A DNA stretch of 44,980 bases from Patescibacteria group bacterium (GTDB lineage Bacteria > Patescibacteriota > Minisyncoccia > Phycocordibacterales > 21-14-all-36-13), in contig JAHIHZ010000023.1 of the NCBI GenBank assembly GCA_018899555.1, forward strand, positions 1 through 44,980. The letters are read 5' to 3'. This document shows positions 2 to 44,980 of the stretch, one piece after another. Each line of letters opens with the position of its first letter. Positions within the stretch are counted from its first letter, which is position 1. The notes under the pieces are model-generated. The model was given only the letters and a program-made list of their open reading frames with translations. It was not told where the DNA came from and made no database searches. The translations under genes and the position numbers were made by a program.

Positions 2-1387
2 GGACTTCCAATCAATACATCTGCATCAGGAACATATACAATTAGATATAATGTTACAGACTCGGGAGGACTAATAGCGATTGAAGTAATCCGAACTGTT
101 ATAGTCCAAGACCCGGTTGTTCCTCCAGTCAATACTCGTCCAGTTATCACACTCACAGGAAGCGCGTCAATAACAATAACAAAAGGCGACGCATACACAG
201 ACGCGGGAGCTACCGCTGAAGACATTGAAGACGGAAATATAACTTCTAACATTGTTAAGACAGGAACGGTTGATACGAACACATCAGGAACATATACAAT
301 TAGATATAATGTTACAGACTCGGGAGGACTAATAGCGATTGAAGTCACAAGAACCGTCATAGTCCAAGACCCAGTTGTTCCTCCACCACCTCCACCTCCG
401 CCTCCAACCTGTGTTGGATGTGGCGGCGGGCCACTCGATATTAGGATAATTATATTTAATGAAAAAGTTACAAAGGTAAATGAAAATACGGCATTTGTAA
501 CATGGAGTACTAATTTACCGGCAACCAGTCGTGTAGCATATGGGTTAAATTCATTTAAAAACAAAACAATAGATATAAATAAAGAAGATTATGACTATGG
601 AAATACGACCGCAGAATTTACAGCATTAACAAAAACACATAGCATGTTAATAACAAATCTTGCATCTGGAGTAAAATATTATTTCAGGCCAAATTCTGAT
701 AATAGTAATTCTCCTAGAGTAATTGGTATAGAACTTGAATTACCAATAGCTCCGGTTAATGGGCAATGTAATTATTTGTTGGAGTTCTTAAAAATTGGGG
801 CAAACAATAATCCACAGGAGGTAATAAAACTCCAAAGATTTTTGAAAGATTATGAGGAGTTTGAAAATCTAGAAGTTACTGGATTCTTTGATCAAAAAAC
901 ATTTGATAATGTTTCAGAATTCCAAATTAGATATGGTTCAGATGTATTGTCTCCATGGAGACACGAAGAATCAACCGGGTTTGTTTATATAACTACAAAG
1001 AAAAAAATAAATGAAATTTATTGTCAAAGAGAATTCCCATTATCAGAGGCAGAAAAAGAGGAGATAGGAAGATTTACTGAAGAAAGAGAAAAAGTAATAC
1101 AAGAAGCTGAAAGGGAAGGACTTGAATTAGAGGATATAATTGGTAAAGCAGAAGAAAAGCCAGGAGAATCAATATTGGCCACAACTGAAGAGACAAGGGG
1201 GGTTACAGCAACACCATCTACTGTAATAACAGGAGCCAGAAACTTGGTTGCGGGGGTTGCAAAAGTATCAGGACAGGTGGTTGGTTCAATTGAGAAAGTA
1301 GCACAAGATACGGCAAGGGGTGTTTACAGGGGACTCTTAAACCTTTTTGGATTTTCTAGTAATTTCTACGAATGCGTAAATAAATAG
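2..1387 (+). CDS. 3' part of a large secreted/cell-surface protein (5' end lies outside the window): two Ig-like DUF5011-type repeats, a poly-Pro linker, an Fn3-like domain, and a PG_binding_1-like domain
   Basis: Frame 2 is open from nt 2 and continues in frame into the listed 644..1387 ORF. The translation gives GTYTIRYNVTDSGGLIAIEV.RTVIVQDPVVPP twice (86-aa period), then PPPPPPPPP, then TAFVTWSTNLPATSRVAYG...GVKYYFRP, then EVIKLQRFLKDYE..LEVTGFFDQKTFDNVSEFQIRYG. Confidence 0.75.
   Translation, partial: GLPINTSASGTYTIRYNVTDSGGLIAIEVIRTVIVQDPVVPPVNTRPVITLTGSASITITKGDAYTDAGATAEDIEDGNITSNIVKTGTVDTNTSGTYTIRYNVTDSGGLIAIEVTRTVIVQDPVVPPPPPPPPPTCVGCGGGPLDIRIIIFNEKVTKVNENTAFVTWSTNLPATSRVAYGLNSFKNKTIDINKEDYDYGNTTAEFTALTKTHSMLITNLASGVKYYFRPNSDNSNSPRVIGIELELPIAPVNGQCNYLLEFLKIGANNNPQEVIKLQRFLKDYEEFENLEVTGFFDQKTFDNVSEFQIRYGSDVLSPWRHEESTGFVYITTKKKINEIYCQREFPLSEAEKEEIGRFTEEREKVIQEAEREGLELEDIIGKAEEKPGESILATTEETRGVTATPSTVITGARNLVAGVAKVSGQVVGSIEKVAQDTARGVYRGLLNLFGFSSNFYECVNK
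24..385 (+). repeat. Intragenic direct DNA repeat: two about 104-bp copies (24-127 and 282-385), offset 258 bp = 86 codons
   Basis: catcaggaacatatacaattagatataatgttacagactcgggaggactaatagcgattgaagt ... gtccaagaccc.gttgttcctcca occurs twice with only a few substitutions. The copies encode the two Ig-like repeats. Confidence 0.9.
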
Positions 1388-1504: not shown

Positions 1505-2893
1505 TCATTTGAGCAGAAGCATTTTCTGCCGGAGGAATTTATTTTCTGTTTGTAATGTATAAAAATAAATTCCACTTGGCAAACCAGTTGCATCAAAATT
1601 AATTTCATATCGGCCTATATTTTTGTATTCATTGACCAATGTAGAAACATTTTGACCAAGTGTATTGTAAACATCAATTTTGACATTACCAGCTTCCGGT
1701 AATTCATAATGAATTATAGTTGTCGGATTAAATGGATTCGGATAATTTGCCAGAAAATATTTTGTAGGCAAACTTTCATCATTAAATGATGTTATACCAA
1801 CTGTCATGAAGTTCCATGTAGGAGACCACTCACTCGCGCCGGCAGAGTTCCGCGCCCTCACACGCCAATAGTATGTTTTAGCATGTGAAAGACCAGACAC
1901 TACTACCCATCTCCAAGTTGTTGTTTTCTCGAAAACTAGTGAAGAGAAATCATCGGATGTACTTACTTGTACATCATACAGATTTTCCTCACTTGATTTG
2001 TACCACCATAATGTAACATTCAATTTTTGCCCGGTGGCATTATTTTTCGGGGACGAGAGTACGGGTGGTGCTGGAATACTTAATAAAGTCGTAAAACTCC
2101 AACTCTCGGACCACTTACCTGTTTTGATACTATCGCTAGCCACGACACGCCAGTAATATTTTGTGTTTTCATCAAGTTCTGATATCACCTGTGAGGTGGT
2201 ATCACTAACTCTGTCATGAACAAGTAGTCCATTAACCATCATTACTTGAAGACGGTAGGTTACATGTCTCCCAATAGAAGGCACGGCTTCCCATAAAAAT
2301 TTAGTCGGTATCCCGACATTCATTTTGTTATTTGTCGGCGAAACCAATGTCGGAGGATGTAGGATTGTATCAATTGTGAATAATCCAGTCGCTAATAGTT
2401 TTCCCAAATCAAAAGCGACCAAATCACCTTCAATGGGCCCGTCGTACAAGAATTTTAATTTTGCGTTGCCAGAATAAATGGACAGGTTTAAAACAATCGT
2501 GCGCCATTTCCAATTTGTAGAACCGGTAGATGTAGCTTTCCACAACTCGGTCCAACTTGTTCCACCATTAGTTGTTATTGAAATATTATATTTCATATAA
2601 GAAATGTAATATTCATTATAAGCAACATCAACTGACAAATTGGTAACACTGGTTAATGAGAATTGACTCGTTATAACCGACCCAACTTTATTTTTGTTCC
2701 ATTCTCCAAATCCAATTTTCTGTTGCTCACGAGGGAGCAAATTATTTGGATTGGTTTGATTGACTGATGGGATTTTTGTAGCATCCCATCCGCCAGTGAT
2801 TTCCCAACCCGCGGGAAATCCTTTTGTTTGCGCTTGCACACCTTGTGCAAGGAGAAACAAAACAAAAACGATAAAAGGAATTATTTTTTTCAT
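1505..2893 (-). CDS. Secreted protein with signal peptide, two Fn3-like repeats and a T9SS type-A (Por) C-terminal sorting domain
   Basis: The N-terminus MKKIIPFIVFVLFLLAQGVQA|Q is a signal peptide. Two repeats end in YYWRV..A....G.WS..W.F.T. The C-terminus NYPNPFNPTTIIHYELPEAGNVKIDVYNTLGQNVSTLVNEYKNIGRYEINFDATGLPSGIYFYTLQ matches the TIGR04183-type sorting domain. An AGGAGG RBS lies upstream. Confidence 0.8.
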   Translation of the reverse strand: MKKIIPFIVFVLFLLAQGVQAQTKGFPAGWEITGGWDATKIPSVNQTNPNNLLPREQQKIGFGEWNKNKVGSVITSQFSLTSVTNLSVDVAYNEYYISYMKYNISITTNGGTSWTELWKATSTGSTNWKWRTIVLNLSIYSGNAKLKFLYDGPIEGDLVAFDLGKLLATGLFTIDTILHPPTLVSPTNNKMNVGIPTKFLWEAVPSIGRHVTYRLQVMMVNGLLVHDRVSDTTSQVISELDENTKYYWRVVASDSIKTGKWSESWSFTTLLSIPAPPVLSSPKNNATGQKLNVTLWWYKSSEENLYDVQVSTSDDFSSLVFEKTTTWRWVVVSGLSHAKTYYWRVRARNSAGASEWSPTWNFMTVGITSFNDESLPTKYFLANYPNPFNPTTIIHYELPEAGNVKIDVYNTLGQNVSTLVNEYKNIGRYEINFDATGLPSGIYFYTLQTENKFLRQKMLLLK

Positions 2894-3045
2894 TTCACGC
2901 CTCCTGCGTATTGTTATTGATTATTTATTTATTAAAATTTCAAATATCTAAATTCAATCTTATAATATCATACTTATATAAATAGTCAACTATAAAAATA
3001 CCCCAACTAAAATCGGTAAAAAGTAATTCACATTCAATTTTATGC

Positions 3046-3188
3046 TGTGGATAACTTTTTATGATTTCCATCAAATCCCTTTATTAGAGCCATTTAAATA
3101 TGTGGATAACTATATGTGACAATGTGGGATAGAGCGGTATATACTTATAGACAAGTGGGATAAAGTGGATAAGTGGATAAGTAGATAA
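3046..3188 (+). promoter_or_regulatory. Cluster of GTGGATAA-type boxes upstream of mraZ (candidate MraZ operator and/or DnaA boxes)
   Basis: TGTGGATAA occurs at 3046-3054 and 3101-3109 (a perfect DnaA-box complement), and TGTGGGATA at 3123. The direct run GTGGGATAAAGTGGATAAGTGGATAAGTAGATAA spans 3154-3188, ending 76 nt before the mraZ ATG. Confidence 0.45.
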
Positions 3189-3263
3189 TCACTTTTATTC
3201 TTCAACTTTAAAACCTCTCAACGAGGTTTTAAAGAGGAGTGATAGATTTTAATCTCTTAAACT

Positions 3264-3698
3264 ATGCTGATAGGAGAATATACACACACAATAGATCCTA
3301 AAAAAAGACTTTCACTTCCAACAAAGTTTCGCAAAGAGTTGGGGAAGAAAGTCGTCCTTACTCATGGGTTAGATAATTGTATTTTTATTTATACCACATC
3401 CAATTGGAAAAATTTTACAAAAAAATTATCAGAACTTTCAATGGGGCAATCTGATTCCAGAAGTTTTAATAGGTTTATGCTCGCGGGGGCGAGAGAGGCA
3501 GAAATAGATGGAGCCGGAAGAATATTAATTCCAGATTTTTTGAAAGATTTTGCTAATTTGAAAAACAAAGTCGTATTGATAGGTGTCCGCGATAGGGTTG
3601 AAATTTGGAATGATAAAGCATGGGCAGAATACAAAAAAGTAATTGAAAAACAGGCAGATACATTTGCAGAGAAATTGGGAGATATAGGAATGATCTGA
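3264..3698 (+). CDS. mraZ: Transcriptional regulator MraZ
   Basis: The 144-aa product MLIGEYTHTIDPKKRLSLPTKFRKEL...RILIPDFLKDFANL has the duplicated SpoVT/AbrB-like MraZ halves. The gene is the first of the dcw-type run mraZ-rsmH-ftsL-ftsI. Confidence 0.95.
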   Translation: MLIGEYTHTIDPKKRLSLPTKFRKELGKKVVLTHGLDNCIFIYTTSNWKNFTKKLSELSMGQSDSRSFNRFMLAGAREAEIDGAGRILIPDFLKDFANLKNKVVLIGVRDRVEIWNDKAWAEYKKVIEKQADTFAEKLGDIGMI

Positions 3699-3706
3699 CA
3701 CTTCGT

Positions 3707-3746
3707 CGCAGATAAACGCAGATTCAAAACGCAGATTTACGCAGAT
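3707..3746 (+). repeat. Four phased direct CGCAGAT repeats immediately after the mraZ stop
   Basis: CGCAGAT occurs at 3707, 3717, 3730 and 3740 (spacings 10, 13 and 10 bp). Confidence 0.8.
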
Positions 3747-3789
3747 GAAAACAATGAAACAATTGAAAAATGATAAAAAATAGTAAAGA

Positions 3790-5208: not shown

Positions 5209-6916
5209 TAGTTTGTTTAGAATAAGAATAATCTCCTTTTTTATTTTGGGGTTTTTTCTTGTTCTGGTTATAAGTTTATACTTTATTCAAATTGTTAATG
5301 GAGATGATTATTCTATAAAAGCAGACAAACAATATTTGCGCCCCAATGAAAATGTTTTTGATAGGGGCTCTATTTTTTTCCAAGATAAAAATGGAATTAA
5401 TGTGTCTGCCGCAACCTTAAAATTAGGTTTCATTCTTGCAATAAATCCCAAGTTAATAGACCCTTCTAAAGAACAAGAGGTCTATGAAAAATTATCTAAA
5501 TTAGTTGAAATAGATAAGGGTGATTATTTTAAAAAAGTAGTCAAAAAAACCGACCCCTATGAAGAAATAGGACAACATTTAACACCAGAAATTGCTCAAA
5601 AAATAACTGAATTAAAATTAATCGGGGTGAATGTTTATAAGGAAAGATGGAGGTTTTATCCTGGGGATAATCTGGCAAGTAATGTGATAGGTTTTATAGG
5701 ATTTCAAGGTGACGATTTAGCCGGTAGATATGGAATAGAAAATTATTACGAAAATATTTTATCTCGTAAAGATAAAAATGTTTATGTTAATTTTTTTGCA
5801 GAAATTTTTTCAGATGTGAGCGCAACGCTTGGTGATGATAACCAAAAAAGGGAAGGGAATATAGTTACGACGATAGAGCCGATGGTAGAAGGGTTTTTTG
5901 AAAAAAAACTAGAAGAAATAAATGAAAAATGGAATTCAAGAAAAACACTCGGTGTGATAATGAATCCGAAAAATGGAGAAATTTATGCAATGGGTATTTA
6001 CCCAAATTTTAATTTGAATGATTTTTCTAATGAAAAAGATGTATCAATTTTTTCAAATCCAATTGTTGAAAATGTTTTTGAAATGGGCTCTATAATGAAA
6101 CCACTTACTATGGCGTCTGGGCTAGACGCTGGTGTTGTAACGGTGGATACGGAATATGATGATAAAGGATTTTTGGTTTTGAATGGAGCAAAGATTTCAA
6201 ATTATGACGGAAAAGGTAGGGGGAAGGTTAATATGCAAGAAGTTTTAAATCAATCTTTAAACACGGGGGCTTCTTTTGTTGTAAGTAAATTGGGAAATAA
6301 AAAATTTGCAGAGTATATGAAAAATTTTGGTCTCGGTGAAGAAACGGGGATTGATTTACCGAATGAATCTGTTGGGATTATAGACAACCTGAACAGCCCG
6401 AGAGATTTGGAATATGCAACGGCATCTTTCGGACAAGGAATAGCTATAAGCCCCATAACAACAGTGAGGGCACTTTCTGCTTTATCTAATGGAGGATTAT
6501 TGGTAATGCCCCACATTGTTAAAAAGATAGAATATAAAAATGGGCTTACAAAAACAGTTCGTGGGGAAACAGAAAAAAGAGTAATAAAAAAAGAAACATC
6601 CGACGAAATTACAAGGATGCTTGTAGAAGTAGTTGATTCGGCGCTTTTGGGAGGGACGGTTAAATTAGAAAGATATAGTATCGCGGCAAAAACAGGTACG
6701 GCGCAAATACCTGATTCTGAAAATGGTGGATATTATAAAGATAGATACCTGCACTCATTTTTTGGGTATTTTCCGGCTTATGACCCAAAATTTATTATAT
6801 TCTTAATGACGATAGAACCAAAAGAAATTGGGTTTGCTTCGCATACTTTAACACAGCCATTTATTGATACTGTTAAATTTTTAATAAATTATTATGAGAT
6901 TCCCCCGGACCGATAA
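5195..6916 (+). CDS. ftsI: Class B penicillin-binding protein / peptidoglycan D,D-transpeptidase FtsI
   Basis: There is an N-terminal TM helix, SxxK (SIMK), SxN (SLN) and KTG (AKTGTA). The gene is in the dcw position after ftsL. Confidence 0.9.
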   Translation: MEESNSLFRIRIISFFILGFFLVLVISLYFIQIVNGDDYSIKADKQYLRPNENVFDRGSIFFQDKNGINVSAATLKLGFILAINPKLIDPSKEQEVYEKLSKLVEIDKGDYFKKVVKKTDPYEEIGQHLTPEIAQKITELKLIGVNVYKERWRFYPGDNLASNVIGFIGFQGDDLAGRYGIENYYENILSRKDKNVYVNFFAEIFSDVSATLGDDNQKREGNIVTTIEPMVEGFFEKKLEEINEKWNSRKTLGVIMNPKNGEIYAMGIYPNFNLNDFSNEKDVSIFSNPIVENVFEMGSIMKPLTMASGLDAGVVTVDTEYDDKGFLVLNGAKISNYDGKGRGKVNMQEVLNQSLNTGASFVVSKLGNKKFAEYMKNFGLGEETGIDLPNESVGIIDNLNSPRDLEYATASFGQGIAISPITTVRALSALSNGGLLVMPHIVKKIEYKNGLTKTVRGETEKRVIKKETSDEITRMLVEVVDSALLGGTVKLERYSIAAKTGTAQIPDSENGGYYKDRYLHSFFGYFPAYDPKFIIFLMTIEPKEIGFASHTLTQPFIDTVKFLINYYEIPPDR

Positions 6917-7000
6917 AAGCAATAAGGCGATAAAGCAAGAAAACAAAAAATCAAGAAAGTAAAATAATAATTTAAAATTAGGAAATTAAAATTCTTTTTG

Positions 7001-7120
7001 TTCTCTTTGTTGTACCGTTCGTACGAACCGCCCACTAGAAAAGTGAAGCAGTTCACTTTTTATTTTTTTTTATTTTCTCTCTATTCTCTTTGTTGTACCG
7101 TTCGTACGAACCGCCCACTA
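7001..7120. repeat. Perfect 37-bp direct repeat (7001-7037 and 7084-7120)
   Basis: ttctctttgttgtaccgttcgtacgaaccgcccacta occurs twice, 83 bp apart. It contains the 12-bp palindrome gttcgtacgaac. Confidence 0.9.
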
Positions 7121-7374
7121 AAAAATAAATAAATTTACTTTTTCTTAACGCTTTCTTTTTAAAAACTTTGTTTTTAAAAAACCCGGGGTTTTAAATTACT
7201 TCGCAATATATAAAACCCTCACAAAGCTAAAAAAGTAAATAAATTTACTTTTTCTTAACGCTTTCTTTTTAAAAACTTTGTTTTTAAAAAACCCGGGGTT
7301 TTAAATTACTTCGCAATATATAAAACCCTCACAAAGCTAAAAAAGTAAATAAATTTACTTTTTCTTAACGCTTT
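7119..7374. repeat. 110-bp tandem repeat, about 2.3 copies, abutting the 3' end of tRNA-Glu
   Basis: The unit aaaaaagtaaataaatttactttttcttaacgctttctttttaaaaactttgtttttaaaaaacccggggttttaaattacttcgcaatatataaaaccctcacaaagct starts at about 7119 and 7229, with a partial copy at 7339-7374. Each unit carries the hairpin aaaaagtaaa/tttacttttt. Confidence 0.9.
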
Positions 7375-7375
7375 G

Positions 7376-7447
7376 TGACCCCACAGAGAATTGAACTCTG
7401 ATTTCCGCCTTGAGAAGGCGATGTCCTAACCGTTAGACGATAGGGCC
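7376..7447 (-). tRNA. tRNA-Glu (anticodon CUC), no encoded CCA
   Basis: The minus strand reads GGCCCTA TC GTCT AACGGTT AGGAC A TCGCC TTCTCAA GGCGG AAAT CAGAG TTCAATT CTCTG TGGGGTC A. This is a full cloverleaf with GG in the D-loop and a TTCAA T-loop. Its architecture closely parallels E. coli tRNA-Glu. Confidence 0.85.
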
Positions 7448-7683
7448 AATAATTTTTCTATAGCCGATCTACTTTTCCATTTTTTTATTTGACTTTCACG
7501 CTTTCGAGCTTCTGATAATGTGTCATATTTTTCAATATGCATCAGTGTCCATGGTCTGCTATTTTTAGTACTTTTTACTTTGCCAGAATTATGATAATTA
7601 ATTCTACTTATTATGCTATTCGTTGCTCCTATATAGTATTTACCATTTTTTACAGATTTTAATATGTAAATATAAAACATCAT
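7426..7683 (-). CDS. Small GIY-YIG nuclease family protein (COG2827/UPF0213-like)
   Basis: MMFYIYILKSVKNGKYYIGATNSIISRINYHNSGKVKSTKNSRPWTLMHIEKY.....ARKRESQIKKWKSR carries the GIY..YIG, R..H and E motifs. The last 7 codons and the TAG stop lie inside the tRNA-Glu 5' region. Confidence 0.85.
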   Translation of the reverse strand: MMFYIYILKSVKNGKYYIGATNSIISRINYHNSGKVKSTKNSRPWTLMHIEKYDTLSEARKRESQIKKWKSRSAIEKLLALSSNG

Positions 7684-7781
7684 TTAAGCGTTAGTCCCGA
7701 TTTTGATTCATCAAAATCGAGGATCCTCGATTTTCTAGTTCAAATTGAATTTGGAATTAGAAAATCGGGAACGATGGGGCC
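7437..7781 (-). mobile_element. About 334-bp GIY-YIG insertion bounded by an 11-bp direct repeat of the tRNA-Glu 5' end
   Basis: On the minus strand, GGCCCCATCGT (7781-7771) and GGCCCTATCGT (7447-7437) match at 10 of 11 positions. The upstream copy pairs better with the acceptor 3' strand TGGGGTC. Between them lie a multi-palindrome leader and the GIY-YIG ORF. Confidence 0.6.
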
Positions 7782-7996
7782 GTAGTAAAAACAAAAAAGC
7801 AAGAAAGCAAGAAAACAACCAACAAAAACAATAAAATTATACATTTTTTAAGTTTTTTATAAAGTAAAAATAAAACTTCGTTTTGTAAGATTTTAGCATA
7901 GCTTAAAGAATTTTAAGAAAAGTAACAATTTCCTCAAACGACACGAAAATTGAAGATTTTTGCGTCTTCTTGTTTATTTTTTAAAAATCCTGTAAA

Positions 7997-8335
7997 ATGT
8001 TATCTAATATGAATGAATTCGCGGTTATAAAAACAGGCGGGAAGCAGTATAAGGTCTCTAAAGGAGACATTATTAATATTGAAAAAATAAAGAGCGAAAA
8101 AGAGCCAAAAATTGGTGACAAAATAATGTTTGATAAGGTTCTAATAGTTGATAATGGTAAAGATACAACCTTGGGCAACCCTTACATAGATGGGGCAAAG
8201 GTAGTGGGTATCTTAACAGATGAAGGGAGGGGGAAAAAAATAACAGTCATAAGATATAAGGCAAAAAGTAGATATTTTAAAAAGAAAGGGCACAGGCAGC
8301 CATTTTTTAAAGTAAAAATAGAATCTATTAAATAA
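7997..8335 (+). CDS. rplU: 50S ribosomal protein L21 (the start may be the in-frame ATG at 8009)
   Basis: The N-terminus FAVIKTGGKQYKVSKGDIINIEKI and the C-terminus GHRQPFFKVKIESI are typical of L21. Confidence 0.95.
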   Translation: MLSNMNEFAVIKTGGKQYKVSKGDIINIEKIKSEKEPKIGDKIMFDKVLIVDNGKDTTLGNPYIDGAKVVGILTDEGRGKKITVIRYKAKSRYFKKKGHRQPFFKVKIESIK

Positions 8336-8520
8336 AAACCTGGCCCAAGCCAGGTTTTTATAGTAGTGAATAGAATTTTTTAAAATTCCTATAACCTGGC
8401 CCAAGCCAGATTGTTGTGGATTAAAAACTAACACTACTCTTTAAAAGCCCATCAAGGGCTTTTAAAGTTATAGTAGTGAATAGAATTTTTTAAAATTCCT
8501 ATAACCTGGCCCAAGCCAGG
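8336..8520. repeat. Terminator-hairpin repeat block after rplU: three copies of cctggcccaagccagg, plus a 51-bp direct repeat (8359-8409 and 8469-8519)
   Basis: aaacctggcccaagccaggttttt follows the rplU stop directly. tatagtagtgaatagaattttttaaaattcctataacctggcccaagccag is repeated 110 bp downstream. Confidence 0.85.
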
Positions 8521-8618
8521 TTTTTTTATTTACAATTTTTTTTGAAAATTATCTTTTACACCAAATGTATCTATCGAGCTATTTTGTGTAAAATAAGAAA
8601 AGTAATATAATAAATATA

Positions 8619-9173
8619 ATGTTAGCAGAAGATAAACAAAAAATAATAAATATATCAAAGTTAATTTTAAAAAGTCTTTTTTCTATCTCTGTTAGTATTG
8701 CATTAATCTCTCTACCCAAGTTGGCACAGGTCATAAAATTATTTGAAACTGATAAAAAATACCGAAATAAATTTAATCGTGAAATTTATAGATTAAAAAA
8801 ATATGGTTATATAAAAACATACAAAAAAGGTGGAGAGATAGTCATAGATATAACCAAAAAGGGAATAAAATTAGTTAAAAAATATAATCTTGAAGATTTA
8901 GAATTAAAAAAAGAACCTAGATGGGACAAAAACTGGAGAATGGTTTTATTTGATATTCCAGAAAATAAAAAATCTGCAAGAGCATCTTTAAGAAGAAAAC
9001 TCGAACAACTCGGCTTTTTGAGGTATCAAAAATCTGTTTTTATATATCCATATTCTTGCAGGGATGAAATTAATTTTATATCAAACTATTTCGGTGTTGA
9101 GAATTTTATCAACTATATAATCGTTAAAAGAATAAATAATGACAAAAAGTTTAAAAAACATTTTGATTTATAA
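8619..9173 (+). CDS. Hypothetical protein with an N-terminal hydrophobic segment and a PaaX-C/Cas2-fold-like domain
   Basis: The motif WDKNWRMVLFDIPENKKSARASLRRKLEQLGFLRYQKSVFIYP matches the W.G.W..V.FDIPE..R......L...GF...Q.SV...P pattern of PaaX-like regulators. The assignment is by motif only. Confidence 0.45.
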   Translation: MLAEDKQKIINISKLILKSLFSISVSIALISLPKLAQVIKLFETDKKYRNKFNREIYRLKKYGYIKTYKKGGEIVIDITKKGIKLVKKYNLEDLELKKEPRWDKNWRMVLFDIPENKKSARASLRRKLEQLGFLRYQKSVFIYPYSCRDEINFISNYFGVENFINYIIVKRINNDKKFKKHFDL

Positions 9174-24489: not shown

Positions 24490-24595
24490 AAAATCTGACA
24501 CTACTCTTGAAAACCTCTCCCAGAGGTTTCCAAGTAGGGATGAAAACCTGACACTACTCTTGAAAACCTCTCCCAGAGGTTTCCAAGTATGGATG
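24490..24595. repeat. 2 x 53-bp tandem repeat containing the cttgaaaacctctcccagaggtttccaag hairpin
   Basis: aaaa(t/c)ctgacactactcttgaaaacctctcccagaggtttccaagta(g/t)ggatg occurs twice. A related copy lies at 21310-21352. Confidence 0.9.
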
Positions 24596-24618
24596 AAAAA
24601 TGTCCCTGGGGACATTTT

Positions 24619-37625: not shown

Positions 37626-37744
37626 TATTTATGGATTCAAAACGGGGGATTAAAAAGCCCATTAGGAGGTTAAGAAAAAAGACATTATGAATTGAAAACC
37701 TCATTTAGAGCTTAGGAAAAAGACATTATGGATTGAAAACCTCA

Positions 37745-39367
37745 TTAAGAGGTTTTCAATTCCACATAAAACTCTGCGCCTTTGCCTTCCCCGTCTGATT
37801 CCGCCCACACCCTGCCTCCATGCGCCTCCATAAATTTTTTAACTATATATAATCCAAGTCCCGTTCCTTTCACATTAACTTTATTTGCGTTGCCAGCTCT
37901 TTTAAATAATGTAAATAATCCGGATAATTCTTTTTTGGGTATTCCAACCCCGCTATCGGAAAGTTTAAATAGTATTTTATTTTCATTTACCCTTTTTAGC
38001 TCCAACTTGAGCCAGCCATATTTTGTATATTTTAGTCCGTTGTCTATTAGGTTTGTTATTACTTGTTTAAATTTGCCCACATCAACTTTTGCGTTGTATT
38101 CTGCCGATTTATCATAATTGAAAGAAAATTCTAAACACGACTCATCTATTGACGGTTTCATTTCGTTTATAACATGAAACACAAGTTCATCTATCTTTGC
38201 TATTTCAAATTTATACTCCATTCTTCCCTGCTCTATCCGCGACACATCTAAAAAATTCTCAACTATCAACGCAAGGCTGTTTGTAGAATCAAACATATTC
38301 TTGATTGGTTGCTTTATTTTCTCCTCCATTTTTCCATAAGAGCCCTCTATTATTAATGAGGCGTATCCTTTTATAGCGGAAAGCGGACTTCTAAATTGGT
38401 GGGAAGCTATAGACAAAAACTCCGACTTTTGCCTATCCAACTCTTTCAATTTTACATTTGCGTCTTCCAATTTTACATTTGTATTCTCTAAATCCTTTGC
38501 AAGTATTTCTATTTTTTCTCTTGTTTCAACCTCCTTTATAACGCTTCTTATTAACAGAATTCCTGCAACTATAACAACCAACAATATAATTCCATTTATG
38601 ATTTGGTCTTCAAGACTTGTAGCCAATATTGTTCTTAAAAGAATAAATATCCAGAGAGCAAATGTTAATATTTCCGTTGCAATAACTTTTACATTGAATA
38701 AGTGATGTTTTATTATTGCGTACCCTAGTGATACAACTAAAATTAAAGTGAAAGGTGGTCCTAACCAGATTAAACTATAGTCTTTCCAAGGCAGAAATAA
38801 ATTGAATACCATTCCTAAAACATAAGAAATCGTTGTGCCAAAAAATATAAACTTGAATTGAAGTTTTGCTAATTTCTCACCAGCTTTTTTATAAGAATTG
38901 ATTAAATTATAGTAGGCCAAAAAAACAAAAAATAGGAAATATGCTACATACCCCAAATACATCTCCTTATTTAAAATTACTCCTTTTGTTCCGTCTTCAA
39001 AAAAGAAAATTTCTTTTAAAAGAAGATTTTTATCAAATAAAAAAGCCCCGATTATTACAATCATTGGAATTAATGATATTAGGATTTTTTTTGAAAATTC
39101 CTTACTCGAATTGAAGTATATGGTAAATAAAAAAAATAGCGTTGGAATTATGGCGGCAGATATATAATAAATGTCCGCATATATTAGTGCATCACCTAAA
39201 TCTTTTGTAGATATAAAAAATCCTAAAAAAAGAGCCCAAGAGGCAACAGATAATATTATCAACGAAAACAAAACATTTGTTTTTGTTTTGCCTCTCCCCA
39301 AAATAAAATAACTAAAAAAAGCATTTAAAACAGCAATTATAAATAACAAAACAATTTGATAATTCAT
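37745..39367 (-). CDS. Sensor histidine kinase with a multi-TM N-terminal domain
   Basis: The N-terminal half has several TM helices (about 6-7). The H-box is SHQFRSPLSAIKGY. The N (DNGLKYT), G1 (SDSGVGI) and G2 (GTGLGLYI) boxes are present. Confidence 0.9.
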   Translation of the reverse strand: MNYQIVLLFIIAVLNAFFSYFILGRGKTKTNVLFSLIILSVASWALFLGFFISTKDLGDALIYADIYYISAAIIPTLFFLFTIYFNSSKEFSKKILISLIPMIVIIGAFLFDKNLLLKEIFFFEDGTKGVILNKEMYLGYVAYFLFFVFLAYYNLINSYKKAGEKLAKLQFKFIFFGTTISYVLGMVFNLFLPWKDYSLIWLGPPFTLILVVSLGYAIIKHHLFNVKVIATEILTFALWIFILLRTILATSLEDQIINGIILLVVIVAGILLIRSVIKEVETREKIEILAKDLENTNVKLEDANVKLKELDRQKSEFLSIASHQFRSPLSAIKGYASLIIEGSYGKMEEKIKQPIKNMFDSTNSLALIVENFLDVSRIEQGRMEYKFEIAKIDELVFHVINEMKPSIDESCLEFSFNYDKSAEYNAKVDVGKFKQVITNLIDNGLKYTKYGWLKLELKRVNENKILFKLSDSGVGIPKKELSGLFTLFKRAGNANKVNVKGTGLGLYIVKKFMEAHGGRVWAESDGEGKGAEFYVELKTS

Positions 39368-39368
39368 A

Positions 39369-40244
39369 TTATTTTTTAACTATCATAACGAGGTGAATTT
39401 TTAATGGCTCAAAAAATATTTTTATGTTTTCTTCTTTAAAACCAGCCCTTTTTGCTAATTCCCAAATAACTTCAGGTTCCCTATAAATCATTTTCCAACC
39501 AACGACATTTGTAACAAATTTTCTCTCATTATTATCAACTATATTAGCGGTTATAAAAGTTCCACCAGTTTGCATATTATCATATATTATTTTAAATATA
39601 TCTTGAACCTTTTCATCATTAAAATAATCTAATAAACCAACCATTTCTATTATATTCGGCTTGTTTTCATCGTGAAAATATTTTGGAAAATTACTTGCCG
39701 TATCCTCAAGCCATCTTGTAAAAAACTTATTCGGCAAAGAAATCGCTAATTTTTTACTATATTCTAGTGCCTCTTTGCTTTTATCTAAAAATGATATTGA
39801 TACATCAACTGATTCCGGAACATTAATTTGTGCGAATGATTCTACAATCGCTCGGGCAGAACCTGAAGCTATACTTAATAAATTTATATTTTCACTTTTT
39901 TCAATTAAATTATTAACCGTTTTTCTTAATTCATTTTCTACTATCATTAATCTGTTTCTTACGGCCTTGGCATTATTTCTTGTCAGCCAAATCCATCTAA
40001 AAAATGCCTGTAATAAATTTTTAGACCTATACATTTTCCCATGTCCATATAAAATTTCTAGGGCATTATAACTTGTTGCTGTTTCTATAATTTTATCTGC
40101 TGCCTTATGTGTTTTTTTAATACCAGGTTGAAAAGATTTGGGTAAATTATTCAATATAGGTATGAAAAAAGAATCAAAAACTATTTTTGGAAAGTTGTTT
40201 GTTTCAAACTTTATATTTTTATCCTTATATATCTCGGCTATCAT
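39369..40244 (-). CDS. Class I SAM-dependent methyltransferase-like protein
   Basis: LLSIASGSARAIVE is a motif I-like G-rich loop. ...IEMVGLLDYF...GGTFITANIV follows. The stop is 1 nt from the kinase start. Confidence 0.6.
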   Translation of the reverse strand: MIAEIYKDKNIKFETNNFPKIVFDSFFIPILNNLPKSFQPGIKKTHKAADKIIETATSYNALEILYGHGKMYRSKNLLQAFFRWIWLTRNNAKAVRNRLMIVENELRKTVNNLIEKSENINLLSIASGSARAIVESFAQINVPESVDVSISFLDKSKEALEYSKKLAISLPNKFFTRWLEDTASNFPKYFHDENKPNIIEMVGLLDYFNDEKVQDIFKIIYDNMQTGGTFITANIVDNNERKFVTNVVGWKMIYREPEVIWELAKRAGFKEENIKIFFEPLKIHLVMIVKK

Positions 40245-40258
40245 TTTTTATTTATTTT

Positions 40259-40325
40259 AATTATACCAAAAAATGAGATGGTTTGGAAAGAAAAATTGAA
40301 AAAATTGACATGGTTTCAAATTGGT
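40259..40325 (+). repeat. Promoter-bearing direct repeat, copy A
   Basis: aattataccaaaaaatgagatggtttggaaagaaaaattgaaaaaattgacatggtttcaaa is about 90 percent identical to 41627-41720, which carries a 24-bp insertion. It contains TTGACA (40305-40310) and, 16 nt on, TATTAT (40327-40332). Confidence 0.85.
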
Positions 40326-40403
40326 ATATTATGTAATTAAACATTAGTTCATTAAGCCACACCTTAAAATGTGGAAAACCAAAACAAATAGAAGAGGCAC
40401 AAA

Positions 40404-40472
40404 ATGGGCAAAAAACCAAGACCGAGGCCGGTACCGTGGCCATATCCAAAACCCCATCCACCGGGTGGATGA
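40404..40472 (+). CDS. 22-codon proline-rich micro-ORF (MGKKPRPRPVPWPYPKPHPPGG)
   Basis: It has its own promoter (40305-40332). AGAGG lies 6 nt upstream of the ATG. Nine of 22 codons are CCN, which explains a sharp local GC spike. A plus-strand terminator follows (ataactcg..cgggttat + TTTTTT, about 40483-40520). Confidence 0.4.
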   Translation: MGKKPRPRPVPWPYPKPHPPGG

Positions 40473-40522
40473 AAAATCAAAATAACTCGTGTTATCAAAA
40501 ATCCGCGGGTTATTTTTTATAT

Positions 40523-41464
40523 TTAAGAAGTAATTGCACTAACAACAATTTCAAAATAATTTTTGTCTATGGTTTTATTATTTTTTATATAGTTTTGTAA
40601 TGTTGGGGCAAGCGCCATACCAACTTTTTTTCTTAAATGTTCAAATTCTATTACATCTGTTTTTGTCGGCAATTTACCAAAATATTTTCTATAAAAATAA
40701 CCCTCTGGGGTAATACTTGTAATAATCATTTCTTCTATTAAGTCAATTTTTGTTAGTTCATATTTTGTGATAATTTTGTTTAAAGATTTATTACTTTTTA
40801 AATTATCACAAAATTTCTTGAAGTCAGTATATATAGGAGATTTTTTAAAAAGATCGTGGCTTATTTCGTGTAATAAAATCCCACCAAAAATATATTTTAA
40901 ATTTTTAATTGGGCAATCAGATATTTCCAACGAAATATTGTTATCTCCCCAATACCAGCCAGCACAGTCGTCCAGAGATTTGTTATTTAAAGAAAGAAAT
41001 ACTTTGTATGAATTTTCTTTGATATTTTCTTTATTTTCTAAATTAAAAAGATTTAACAAAATTTTTTTATATTTTTTCTCTTTAGATATATATTCCAATT
41101 TTTTCTTTCTCTCTACTAACTTTAATCTTTCCTTTTTATATATTTCTTCAAAAACAGGTTTAAGGTTGGCTAATATTTGATTAATCTGCTGAAATTCTTG
41201 CGCAGTTAAAAGTTTTTTTAATTCTTTTTGCAGATTTTCCCCAGAATTTTCAAAATAAAAAATATATGATAAATCAGGATAATATTTTATATAAATTTTA
41301 GAAAAAATTTTTAATAAATTTTTTTGTTGATTTGTAAGAATATCAATCTTTTTTAAAAAATTATTTTTTCTATTATGAAAATATAAAGACGAACCCTGCC
41401 CAGAGATGTCAGTTAGAAAAGAAAATAGTAGAGCCGTGTGATTAAAGAAAAATTTATAATTCAT
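40523..41464 (-). CDS. Hypothetical protein with an HExxH zinc-metallopeptidase motif
   Basis: The 313-aa product carries GGILLHEISHDLF. There is no signal peptide. The family was not recognised beyond the motif. Confidence 0.5.
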   Translation of the reverse strand: MNYKFFFNHTALLFSFLTDISGQGSSLYFHNRKNNFLKKIDILTNQQKNLLKIFSKIYIKYYPDLSYIFYFENSGENLQKELKKLLTAQEFQQINQILANLKPVFEEIYKKERLKLVERKKKLEYISKEKKYKKILLNLFNLENKENIKENSYKVFLSLNNKSLDDCAGWYWGDNNISLEISDCPIKNLKYIFGGILLHEISHDLFKKSPIYTDFKKFCDNLKSNKSLNKIITKYELTKIDLIEEMIITSITPEGYFYRKYFGKLPTKTDVIEFEHLRKKVGMALAPTLQNYIKNNKTIDKNYFEIVVSAITS

Positions 41465-41626
41465 AGGAATTTAAGAAATGGAAATTTTTTTAGAGTATCT
41501 GAATTATCCCTTGGATGGACCAACCACACAAAATCTACTGGTTTAATAAAATACTTAACAAATTTCTTCGGAATAAATTTGATAAGTAAATCCCTAAAAA
41601 TCCTCAAAATCGATTTCATACATTGC

Positions 41627-41720
41627 AATTATACCAAAAAATAAGATGATTTGAAAAGAAAAATTGAAAATAGAAAACAAAAAACTACACAATAAAATTG
41701 ACATAGTTTCAAACAGTCGT
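41627..41720 (+). repeat. Promoter-bearing direct repeat, copy B
   Basis: The sequence is aattataccaaaaaataagatgatttgaaaagaaaaattgaaaa[24-bp insert]aaattgacatagtttcaaa. TTGACA is at 41698-41703, followed by a 16-nt spacer and TACTAT at 41720-41725, upstream of the 41777 operon. Confidence 0.85.
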
Positions 41721-41776
41721 ACTATTTATTGTACGGGCAGAGAATTTTTTCTAGAAATATGATATAATATAAAAAT

Positions 41777-43940: not shown

Positions 43941-44205
43941 TTTACCCCGCCCGCCTACCGCAAACAGGTAGCCCAGCCCCGGGCTGGTGATACTGGGGTG
44001 AATAAGAGAATGGAAAACCGGACATTTTCCTATACAACCATTCAATTGAATAAGAGAATGGAAAACCGGACATTTTCCTATACAACCATTCAATTGAATA
44101 AGAGAATGGAATTTTGTAAAAGACTATCCTCCTATTCGCTACAATTAGAGAATGGATAAAAAAAAACAAAACTATCCCCTTATTCGCTACAATTAGAGAA
44201 TAGAA
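43941..44205. repeat. Composite repeat module 1: 56-nt GC-rich three-stem element (43944-43999) plus a 48-bp-period tandem array (2.3 A-type and 2 B-type units)
   Basis: The GC-rich element is ACCCC..CTACC gcaaaca GGTAG..CCAGCC ccg GGCTGG..GGGGT. The A-unit gaataagagaatggaaaaccggacattttcctatacaaccattcaatt starts at 44000 and 44048, with 44096 partial. The B-unit actatcc.c.tattcgctacaattagagaat.ga starts at 44123 and 44171. Confidence 0.9.
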
Positions 44206-44299: not shown

Positions 44300-44629
44300 T
44301 TATTCAAGGGCGCTCCAAATTTTGGTTTTGATGGTCTTGGCGTCATCTCCTGTTTTGACGACAATTGCCGGAACATTGGGAAATTTTTTCCAATGGTTCA
44401 GAACGCTGGTCTGAGAACTTTTTACCTGTAAGGGTATCTTTTCACCACTTATTTTGATGACGAAAAAATCAATCCCCTGAAATTTGTCTGCATGGCGACC
44501 AGTTTTGTAAAAACTTACAATTTCACCATCTCTTGCCATTTCATCAAGAGCTATACCAACCGCTACTTCGGCCCCTCGACCTCGCTGACGCTCAATTTTT
44601 TTAATGAGATTGACAACGGTTCTGCTCAT
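44300..44629 (-). CDS. 109-aa stand-alone Hjc/Mrr-like PD-(D/E)xK mini-nuclease (putative)
   Basis: The promoter is TTGAAA-17-TATAAT (44694-44666), with an AGGAGG RBS and a terminator cgccctt gaat aagggcg + T-run. RGRGAEVAVGIALDEMARDGEIVSF...QGIDFFVIKISGEKIPLQVKSS follows the G..E...L...G / D / (E/Q)VKS pattern of Holliday-junction-resolvase-like nucleases. The gene is GC-richer than its surroundings. Confidence 0.5.
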   Translation of the reverse strand: MSRTVVNLIKKIERQRGRGAEVAVGIALDEMARDGEIVSFYKTGRHADKFQGIDFFVIKISGEKIPLQVKSSQTSVLNHWKKFPNVPAIVVKTGDDAKTIKTKIWSALE

Positions 44630-44791: not shown

Positions 44792-44980
44792 TTTACCCCG
44801 CCCGCCTACCGCAAACAGGTAGCCCAGCCCCAGGCTGGTGATACTGGGGTGAATAAGAGAATGGAAAACCGGACATTTTCCTATACAACCATTCAATTGA
44901 ATAAGAGAATGGAAAACCGGACATTTTCCTATACAACCATTCAATTGAATAAGAGAATGGAAAACCGGACATTTTCCTAT
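44792..44980. repeat. Composite repeat module 2 (truncated by the window end): same GC-rich element plus at least 2.7 A-type 48-bp units
   Basis: It is identical to 43941-44110 at an offset of 851 bp, apart from one substitution (g to a at 44832) that falls in the 3-nt loop of the CCAGCC/GGCTGG hairpin. The third unit remains A-type here, whereas it diverges in module 1. Confidence 0.9.

Follow-up and report, generated by a model that had tools for sequence, protein, structure and literature searches.

A stand-alone open reading frame (ORF) of 22 codons was followed up in a 44,980-nucleotide stretch of DNA, the forward strand of contig JAHIHZ010000023.1 (assembly GCA_018899555.1) from a Patescibacteria group bacterium; this whole stretch is called the window below. 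On the comparative evidence the micro-ORF is a genuine, separately transcribed peptide-coding gene whose proline-rich core is under purifying selection, and by the same comparison the gene is older than the window genome. It lies convergent with the gene of a 313-amino acid protein carrying an HExxH motif, which appears to belong to an undescribed family of putative metalloenzymes. We propose, with roughly even confidence, that the two genes encode a reduced, nearly leaderless enzyme-substrate pair similar to those of RiPPs (peptides that are made on the ribosome and altered after translation). The features on which the argument rests are as follows (positions in the window).

40339-40403, + strand: 5' leader of the micro-gene, about 65 nt, its start inferred from the position of the -10 box
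40404-40472, + strand: micro-gene ORF encoding the 22-amino acid peptide MGKKPRPRPVPWPYPKPHPPGG, nine of its 22 codons being CCN
40426-40441, + strand: hairpin 1, GGCC-GGTACC-GTGGCC (GGCCGGTACCGTGGCC), -8.6 kcal/mol, formed from AGG-CCN and TGG-CCN codons
40455-40471, + strand: hairpin 2, CATCCACC-g-GGTGGATG (CATCCACCgGGTGGATG), -9.3 kcal/mol, formed from the His-Pro-Pro-Gly-Gly and stop codons
40479-40519, both strands: bidirectional intrinsic terminator that the micro-gene (+) has in common with the HExxH gene (-), either strand having its T-run
40523-41464, - strand: HExxH protein, 313 amino acids, with HEISH at residues 199-203, Glu245 and a PEG motif

The micro-ORF differs sharply in composition from its surroundings. 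In the GC profile of the window the segment 40400-40479 reached 0.51, as against 0.19-0.29 in the flanks, and this island (51% GC in DNA of about 25% GC) is explained by the ORF. Proline accounts for 41% of the codons, compared with 3.2% in the long genes of the window, and the number of times that at least nine CCN codons would fall within 22 codons by chance across the whole window is about 3e-4. The ORF is served by a + strand promoter (TTGACA-16-TATTAT, 40305-40332) matching the consensus at 11 of 12 positions, and by a Shine-Dalgarno (SD) sequence, AGAGG (40393-40397), located 6 nt 5' of the ATG. The proline-rich ORF with its GC island, the promoter, the leader and the SD had all been part of the original prediction, and all were recovered with their positions unchanged. 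The TGA that ends the ORF is a genuine stop codon: TGA terminates seven of the 36 genes of the window and interrupts no conserved gene, and in one relative the micro-ORF ends with TAG. Recoding of UGA as Gly (genetic code table 25) was considered and ruled out by the stop-codon usage and the intact conserved genes. A scan of the whole window at the Rfam gathering thresholds detected only a tRNA-Glu (7376-7447), and a permissive Rfam scan of 40200-40600 yielded sub-threshold noise, with no match for the micro-gene region.

The micro-ORF was found in four further lineages (L001/L018, L003-L008/L022/L024, L009 and L023). The carrier contigs are low-GC metagenome contigs (25-31% GC), most of them from 0.1-um filter fractions of Hainich groundwater. 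L023, a JGI contig, joined them as the fifth lineage when metagenome contigs were scanned with a degenerate DNA pattern; its micro-ORF adjoins the C-terminal end of the HExxH gene. The peptide of the relatives is 27 amino acids long and has the form M(K/R)(W/L)V(I/R)FSK(K/N)PRPRP(R/V)PWP(Y/F/H)PKPHPPGG, the conserved core being PRPRPxPWPxPKPHPPGG:

L001: MKLVRFSKKPRPRPRPWPYPKPHPPGG
L003-L008: MRWVIFSKNPRPRPRPWPFPKPHPPGG
L009: MKWVIFSKKPRPRPRPWPFPKPHPPGG
L023: MRWVIFSKNPRPRPVPWPHPKPHPPGG

Gene callers had left the micro-gene unannotated on every contig that carries it. Its expression signals are shared among the lineages: the -35 and -10 boxes and the spacer are conserved in L023, L005 and L001, the same three carry GGAGGTGAGAAAGATG, a strong SD (GGAGGTG) plus ATG, and the first 25 nt or so of the leader (TAATTAAACATTAGTTCAYTAA) are kept in the relatives. 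The L009 contig stops just 5' of the ATG, with the SD region outside the contig. In every relative recovered the micro-gene lies directly past the stop codon of the HExxH gene, on the opposite strand and convergent with it, so that the two genes occurred together wherever a relative was found. The neighbours on the far side of the micro-gene vary (methyltransferase-kinase, coaBC-like and others), as do the genes between the HExxH gene and a conserved acyltransferase gene, and the pair persists through both kinds of change.

The substitutions among the five lineages follow the reading frame. Over the 19 shared codons there were 3, 3 and 11 variable columns at first, second and third codon positions (binomial p = 0.008). 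In ten of ten pairs the synonymous codon differences outnumbered the non-synonymous ones, with 3-8 synonymous differences per pair, including the swaps CCA/CCG/CCT, AGG/CGA and GGT/GGC. A frame conserved in four other lineages with mainly synonymous substitutions speaks for a genuine peptide gene, as had been predicted. The alternative that the segment does not encode a peptide at all was rejected, since the + frame is kept and third-position changes dominate. Homologous loci that conserve the palindromes and lose the frame had been named as evidence against a peptide. The opposite was found, the frame being kept and the GGCC hairpin being broken in L009, and the peptide gene is therefore supported. 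A glycine-rich ORF of 44 amino acids is open on the complementary strand of the window (40364-40498, - strand). It was rejected as a real gene: it has no SD, and in L023 it is interrupted by a stop codon that arises from a CCC>CCT change, synonymous on the + strand.

Carriers of the micro-gene were sought mainly with a single strict DNA pattern, the refined (Px)7-PPGG-stop in which x is not P, T, A or S. In metagenomes this pattern returned the Hainich contigs, the new relative L023 and four unrelated matches. There were no matches in viral contigs, and in GTDB genomes there was a single unrelated match in Desulfovibrionaceae. In viral contigs a loose version, (Px)7-PPGG-stop, matched nothing but poly-Pro tracts of GC-rich DNA. 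No matches were obtained when a protein database was searched with a 54-amino acid tandem of two peptide variants, nor by tblastn of the peptide against phages and plasmids, the latter outcome probably owing to low-complexity masking. The distribution of the micro-gene thus searched looks narrow.

Folding of the alignment revealed three conserved hairpins across the micro-gene region, and the + strand terminator and both palindromes of the original prediction were found to be present. Hairpin 1 is disrupted in L009, where CGA replaces AGG and the peptide is unchanged; it is therefore probably a by-product of the codons. In hairpin 2 all stem pairs are kept, with one A-U to G-C switch in L023 and L005, and the loop base varies (G/G/G/T/A in the five lineages). 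This pattern suggests some selection on structure, with the caveat that CCN-CCN-GGN-GGN is inherently palindromic and that the covariation is possibly a single event. On the - strand hairpin 2 is followed by GGGGTTTTGG, and the segment 40452-40474 was flagged as terminator-like by a scan; hairpin 2 may act as a backup terminator for read-through from the HExxH gene. The bidirectional terminator begins 7 nt past the stop codon of the micro-gene. It consists of a 13-bp stem (40479-40491/40504-40516) and a T-run (-12.5 kcal/mol), and two compensatory or wobble changes were seen in it among the relatives. A simple terminator scan missed it on the + strand because the loop is 12 nt long.

Alignment with the relatives indicates that the 22-amino acid peptide of the window is an N-terminally truncated derivative of the 27-amino acid form. 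The promoter and the early leader align with those of the relatives, and the segment of about 40362-40409, comprising the remainder of the leader with its SD, is remodelled with respect to the ancestral GGAGGTGAGAAAGATG. The ancestral SD and ATG were degraded to AGAAGAGG..., and a net deletion of 10 nt puts a new ATG in frame with the proline-rich core; in our reading of the sequences this ATG is an A|TG spanning the ancestral codons 2-3. The indels removed the hydrophobic heptapeptide MRWVIFS and left the core in frame. L023, the closest relative, retains the 27-amino acid form. Its core differs from that of the window by five synonymous codon differences and one non-synonymous difference, and its HExxH protein is 95% identical over the 85 residues present on the contig. 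Loss of the heptapeptide and retention of the proline-rich core point to the core as the part of the peptide that carries the function.

The convergent HExxH protein has few close relatives: three were found among 5.8 billion proteins, with 85, 70 and 62% identity. Most are encoded on short contigs from Hainich groundwater, each with a micro-ORF just beyond the HExxH gene. A profile built from four close sequences retrieved 157 cluster representatives (E <= 1e-3) among 1.84 billion proteins, and the members of the family have about 300-340 amino acids. In an alignment of 60 members Glu245 and Tyr292 are invariant, and His199, Glu200, His203, Pro253, Gly255 and others are conserved to at least 90%. 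An AlphaFold2 model based on this alignment reached a predicted local distance difference test score (pLDDT) of 92.9 and a predicted template modelling score (pTM) of 0.90; with four sequences the pLDDT was 51 and the model was unusable. A Foldseek comparison of the better model with the PDB, where a structure of the alpha-ketoglutarate (alpha-KG)-HExxH family is unconfirmed, gave a best E of 4.9.

Sequence models placed the protein no more closely. Zincins (gluzincins) have an HExxH motif plus a Glu ligand downstream of it; the motif and Glu245 are present here, and the matches to peptidase families were weak only: DUF5700 ('putative zinc peptidase') matched two of the 60 members (E = 0.0014), and a Wss1p/SprT-like match was located around the HExxH motif (E = 0.025). 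At E <= 1 the HExxH-type models of NCBIfam gave no match to the 60 members, in a library in which TIGR04269 (FxsB) is present and TIGR04267 is unconfirmed. The family is not demonstrably within the alpha-KG-dependent HExxH RiPP enzymes (IPR026337/TIGR04267 type), whose HExxH motif it has and whose sequence model it does not match. A defence function was also considered for the HExxH protein and set aside, PADLOC giving no match for it.

More distant members of the family were informative through their gene neighbourhood. Six of seven informative members adjoin the gene of a radical S-adenosylmethionine (rSAM)/SPASM maturase; an eighth contig, whose length was insufficient for a judgement, is not among the seven. 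In five of the six rSAM loci the maturase gene is convergent with, and directly 3' of, the HExxH gene, which is the position of the micro-gene in the window. The seven loci are:

P0005 (L025/L026): convergent rSAM/SPASM gene, with YcaO and nitroreductase genes on the other side; 58-amino acid ORF ...KNWGKGTGGPYPWRKSPK
P0006 (L028): convergent rSAM/SPASM gene; 48-amino acid ORF ...REWGKGPTGPYPWRKK
P0008 (L033): operon ORF-rSAM-HExxH; 54-amino acid Cys-rich ORF
P0009 (L035): convergent rSAM gene, with two histidine kinase genes beyond; 50-amino acid ORF ...WDRGPWDKGHWANRK
P0010 (L037): convergent rSAM gene; no small ORF recognised upstream
P0013 (L038): convergent rSAM/SPASM gene; small ORF MKNTPKVLLAIKKNAKRKINKGAEPWDKGHWANRG
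P0007 (L030): no rSAM gene; ATP-grasp gene of the MvdD type about 2 kb away; no small ORF

Trp-rich precursor ORFs lie 5' of four of the convergent maturase genes (...WGKGTGGPYPWRKSPK, ...WGKGPTGPYPWRKK, ...WDRGPWDKGHWANRK and ...EPWDKGHWANRG), and the rSAM-linked precursors have leaders of 20-40 residues. The best models for the maturases were anSME, DynA, DarE and GrrM (cyclophane-forming), all below the curated cut-offs. By gene context, then, the HExxH family is a recurrent partner of predicted cyclophane-type rSAM peptide maturation. In the precursors of the distant loci the leader has the motif (I/V)P(K/R/Q)VL(L/V)..K, while the core is Trp-rich, being WGKG..GPYPWRK or WDKGHWANR. L025/L026, L028, L033, L035, L037 and L038 seem to represent an apparently unnamed three-gene cluster of precursor, rSAM/SPASM maturase and HExxH protein.

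HExxH enzymes that are partnered with or fused to cyclophane-forming rSAM enzymes are known as RiPP tailoring enzymes. HExxH proteins in such clusters can be alpha-KG/Fe(II) oxygenases, not proteases; alpha-KG-HExxH enzymes hydroxylate cyclophane-bearing cores, and PflC/PosC remove a C-terminal tetrapeptide oxidatively and leave an amide, cleavage being favoured by Ala and Gly (PMC12636437). Cyclophane substrates include WGK- and WPR-type motifs (PMC11851443).

In the pair proposed here the HExxH metalloenzyme encoded by the convergent gene would have the peptide of the micro-gene (22 amino acids, 27 ancestrally) as its substrate. The ancestor or the model of such a pair would be a three-gene system of precursor, cyclophane-type rSAM/SPASM maturase and HExxH protein, as seen around distant members of the HExxH family. 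In the clade of the window the rSAM gene would have been lost and, as a proposed consequence, the leader too, shrinking to seven residues (two in the window). With the maturase gone and the leader shrunk, the target of the HExxH protein would be the core itself, which it would trim, hydroxylate or process oxidatively at the C-terminal Gly-Gly. Work on the core or on the C-terminal Gly-Gly seems more likely than a role as leader peptidase, because the window keeps an intact HExxH protein and almost no N-terminal extension. The comparisons show the gene with its expression signals, purifying selection on the peptide, the strict pairing with the HExxH gene and the RiPP context of the HExxH family; that the HExxH protein acts on the micro-peptide, by which chemistry, and what the mature peptide would do, is inferred. 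Among the alternatives offered in the original prediction a RiPP-like precursor is the best supported one, by the distant HExxH homologues in rSAM peptide-maturation clusters. Of the attributes of a RiPP precursor, a short peptide gene under selection is seen in five lineages, and a division into leader and core is not seen. Partnership with an rSAM enzyme is present for the distant HExxH homologues and absent in the window and its close relatives.

A number of observations weigh against this proposal. No rSAM, YcaO, ATP-grasp or transporter gene was found in the 45-kb window. The peptide is nearly leaderless, with seven residues 5' of the core in the relatives and two in the window. The micro-gene and the HExxH gene are convergent, have separate promoters and do not form an operon. 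All carriers of the micro-gene are close relatives with conserved local synteny, so that the co-occurrence could be inherited gene order; further carriers were sought by one strict pattern, and only one clade was recovered. No Pro-rich micro-ORF was found beside the distant HExxH homologues, and homology of the micro-peptide to the Trp-rich precursors is not demonstrable. The HExxH protein of the window has no Pfam or NCBIfam match and no PDB match.

The proline content permits another reading, in which the micro-peptide is a free-standing, unmodified translation inhibitor of the proline-rich antimicrobial peptide (PrAMP) type, acting in the ribosomal exit tunnel or on DnaK. It would be aimed at neighbour or host cells, or at the producer as a toxin; the HExxH protein would then have no connection with it, or would be a protease that confers immunity or degrades the peptide. 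We consider this unlikely. PrAMPs are defined as cationic antimicrobial peptides with at least 25% Pro and an intracellular target, the 70S ribosome or DnaK (PMC7736402), and in sequence the micro-peptide conforms: its Pro share is 41% in the window and 33% in the 27-amino acid relatives, its charge is +5 to +8, and it has no acidic residues and two to three overlapping PRP motifs. Twelve of 15 positions are identical to residues 11-25 of Bac7 (PRPRPRPWPFPKPHP vs PRPRPRPLPFPRPGP; Bac7 sequence from PMC7736402). The strong promoter and SD, and the retention of the core although the N-terminus was lost, are consistent with such a function as well. However, the Bac7 score was reached in 2.5-22% of permutations in which the Pro positions were fixed (p ~0.03-0.2), and the likeness is architectural, not a sign of homology, because composition and Pro periodicity explain the score. 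The resemblance to drosocin, apidaecin and oncocin that had been claimed for the peptide was not significant. For the other PrAMPs (apidaecin, oncocin, pyrrhocoricin and the drosocin type) p was above 0.03 and mostly above 0.2, the best match being Bac7, which alternating Pro and the Arg content account for. Moreover, a signal peptide is lacking, the neighbourhood contains neither an export gene nor an immunity transporter, a cytoplasmic ribosome plug would poison its producer, and no bacterial PrAMP turned up in the literature searched. The PrAMP-like architecture could still matter functionally. A decidedly unlikely combination of ideas is that an ultra-small groundwater bacterium, probably of the CPR/Patescibacteria type to judge by the 0.1-um fractions and the 25-31% GC, makes a Bac7-like peptide which is matured by a new-fold HExxH enzyme and plugs the ribosomal tunnels of its host or competitors. 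The enzyme would then, for instance, remove the C-terminal Gly oxidatively, leaving an amide, or hydroxylate the peptide, and the product would be a tailored counterpart of the animal PrAMPs, derived from an rSAM RiPP system minus maturase and leader. If it were true that the peptide targets the ribosome or a chaperone, animal PrAMPs would have their first analogue in bacteria, and episymbiotic bacteria might use such a peptide against the cells they live on.

Alternatively, the micro-ORF might be a cis-regulatory ORF. Ribosomes would pause, depending on elongation factor P (EF-P) or prolyl-tRNA, at the Pro-Pro-Gly of the C-terminus, which lies within the hairpin over the stop codon, and the pause would tune the shared terminator and so antisense read-through or transcriptional interference with the HExxH gene. 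PPG is an EF-P-dependent pause motif (PMC4140641, PMC5021804), the HPPGG-stop hairpin is kept, one of its pairs covarying and its loop base varying freely, the terminator is only 7 nt away from the stop codon, and the arrangement is convergent in all relatives. We nevertheless judge this quite improbable: instead of a co-directional gene downstream, which a stalling leader as originally suggested would need for its effect, there are a terminator and a convergent gene, and selection is not confined to PPG but covers all 18 residues of the core, the non-Pro residues W, Y/F, K and H among them. A ribosome halted on the stop codon would, by the standard footprint, extend to about 40482 and leave most of the 5' arm of the terminator (40479-40491) uncovered, and should therefore not block formation of the hairpin; besides, PPGG codons are palindromic, and part of hairpin 2 thus comes free. 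Doubtful to the same degree is a lineage-specific small basic protein unrelated to the HExxH protein, either associated with ribosomes or nucleic acids or modulating a histidine kinase. The strong expression signals, high positive charge and small size would suit it, and a histidine kinase is encoded nearby in the window as well as in L023 (47% identity) and at L035, a distant locus, but the kinase is not adjacent in most relatives, where the HExxH gene is the sole constant neighbour, and the distribution looks narrow, with one clade recovered. Finally, the GC island could act as RNA or DNA, for instance through stacked hairpins that serve as a bidirectional terminator or a 3' stabiliser of the HExxH mRNA, and contain a fortuitous ORF. 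Three hairpins fill the island, 40452-40474 is terminator-like on the - strand, and the fold has a modest z-score of -1.83. Against this, variation is dominated by third positions and the amino acids are kept through 3-8 synonymous changes per pair, the relatives have a strong SD and ATG at correct spacing, the conserved promoter points into the ORF, the break of hairpin 1 in L009 left the peptide unchanged, and the ORF was re-established after the indel in the window; we hold an element without a peptide to be extremely improbable.

The micro-gene promoter is part of a cassette of about 100 bp that occurs twice in the window.

40246-40335, both strands: promoter cassette copy 1, whose + strand promoter, TTGACA-16-TATTAT at 40305-40332, drives the micro-gene
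41614-41728, both strands: promoter cassette copy 2, whose + strand promoter, TTGACA-16-TACTAT at 41698-41725, faces the DUF6922-AbiEii operon

The two copies match in two parts, 40246-40302 with 41614-41670 (86% identity) and 40301-40335 with 41694-41728 (77% identity), and the 20-mer at the core of the repeat (AAAATTGACATGGTTTCAAA) occurs twice in the window as against 0.07 expected occurrences. The duplication proposed in the original prediction therefore stands with slightly corrected coordinates, whereas the insertion in copy 2 measures 25 bp and not 24 bp. On the - strand copy 1 carries TTTCCA-18-(TG)TATAAT (40289-40260), which faces the methyltransferase-kinase operon, and copy 2 carries an extended -10 box (TG-TATAAT, 41657-41628), which faces the HExxH gene and probably serves it, with a 5' untranslated region of about 155 nt. 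Since both copies have a - strand extended -10 promoter, the duplicated element is a divergent promoter pair. In one respect copy 2 is nearer to the micro-gene promoter of the relatives, as it retains ...ACACAAyrAAATTGACA.

The relatives have a single promoter copy per locus, copy 2 being absent. In L003 the flanking 109-amino acid gene (85% identity) and the acyltransferase gene (84%) are in the same order as in the window, and other genes take the place of the AbiE genes. The suggestion that the micro-gene and the HExxH gene form a unit flanked by direct repeats did not survive this comparison, and a repeat-bounded mobile unit was rejected, the relatives having one copy and the same chromosomal synteny. 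The cassette duplication is, by this comparison, specific to the window genome and tied to its AbiE module, and is not the mark of a mobile unit; the pair itself lies in chromosomal surroundings that are stable apart from a local turnover of genes. The neighbours otherwise agreed with their initial description (a convergent 313-amino acid HExxH protein, an AbiEii operon, a methyltransferase and a kinase), Pfam assigning Methyltransf_20, 7TM histidine kinase, DUF6922, AbiEii and acyltransferase. The rest of the window is ordinary chromosome, with genes for aminoacyl-tRNA synthetases, ScpAB, FtsW, MurG, a penicillin-binding protein, DnaB and the ribosomal proteins L9 and L21.

Some further features were recorded on the way. 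L023 encodes a histidine kinase at 2779-3759 that is 47% identical to the kinase of the window, and in L035 two HisKA/HATPase genes (6543-8632) follow the rSAM-precursor unit; the recurrence of histidine kinases near HExxH loci may be a coincidence or a sensing link. A direct repeat of 171 nt (43941-44111 and 44792-44980, 99% identical) flanks the 109-amino acid gene at 44300-44629 (- strand). Within each copy a 48-nt unit (TGAATAAGAGAATGGAAAACCGGACATTTTCCTATACAACCATTCAAT) is repeated perfectly in tandem, 2.4 times in the first and at least 2.7 times in the second, whose array extends past the end of the window. A 110-nt tandem repeat (7118-7374, 2.3 copies, 99% identical) adjoins the tRNA-Glu(CTC) gene at 7375-7447 (- strand). 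Intergenic tandem repeats were also found at 24490-24599 (53-nt unit, 2.1 copies, 96%) and 37647-37751 (41-nt unit, 2.5 copies, 82%), the latter lying beside the 3' end of a histidine kinase gene and a GC-rich island at 37747-37848. The strongest GC island of the window (315-457, up to 0.67) contains one frame with at least nine proline codons (..DPVVPPPPPPPPPTCVGCGG) and is located upstream of an ORF with a peptidoglycan-binding domain (644-1387). Two ORFs stand out among housekeeping genes: 1505-2893 (- strand) encodes a 462-amino acid protein with Fn3-like repeats and a Por_Secre_tail domain (type IX secretion sorting), and 8619-9173 (+ strand) a 184-amino acid protein with a PaaX_M/Cas2-like domain.

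Genes of 22-27 codons fall under the limits of gene callers, and this example shows that raw sequence can be enough to spot such a gene and comparative genomics alone to validate it. It exposed a previously unannotated micro-gene family and an undescribed HExxH family of about 157 cluster representatives. The clade of the window, which has only the enzyme and a leaderless proline-rich peptide, offers a natural minimal system for learning the role of the enzyme.

With the animal PrAMPs (Bac7, apidaecins, oncocin, PR-39) the micro-peptide shares a length of 22-27 residues, PRP motifs and a PxPx tract with aromatics. Unlike them it is encoded by a bacterial stand-alone ORF without a signal or pro-region, and neither the N-terminal pharmacophore of Bac7 (RRIRPRPPRLPRPR) nor the apidaecin C-terminus PRPPHPRL is reproduced. 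With EF-P pause sites and leader attenuators it has in common a PPG at the end of the ORF and a hairpin and intrinsic terminator directly 3' of it; it differs from the attenuators in that there is no regulated downstream gene and selection acts on the whole peptide.

The likeness to rSAM/SPASM-HExxH RiPP clusters (ChlB-type with rSAM and alpha-KG-HExxH fused, FxsB/FxsC-type, PflC/PosC, BpmH) lies in a short peptide gene that adjoins an HExxH gene, in a peptide rich in aromatic, basic and Pro/Gly residues, and in distant HExxH homologues that stand beside cyclophane-type rSAM/SPASM genes, most of them with precursors of the W-x-K/R type. In contrast to these clusters the window has no rSAM gene, the peptide lacks a leader, the genes are convergent with promoters of their own, and the core is an alternating-proline tract instead of W-x-K/R cyclophane motifs; the HExxH protein is matched neither by the NCBIfam/Pfam models of these systems nor by a PDB entry. 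Very short precursors have precedents in PqqA (about 23 amino acids), the MxYxH pentapeptides of the biarylitides and the heptapeptide of microcin C. They are processed by dedicated enzymes (the rSAM enzyme PqqE, a cytochrome P450 and MccB, respectively), and in most cases the genes run in the same direction. In the window the gene of the candidate enzyme is convergent and its product uncharacterised; the micro-gene resembles the genes of PqqA, the biarylitides and microcin C in being tiny and usually unannotated, in having its own expression signals and in adjoining the gene of an enzyme.

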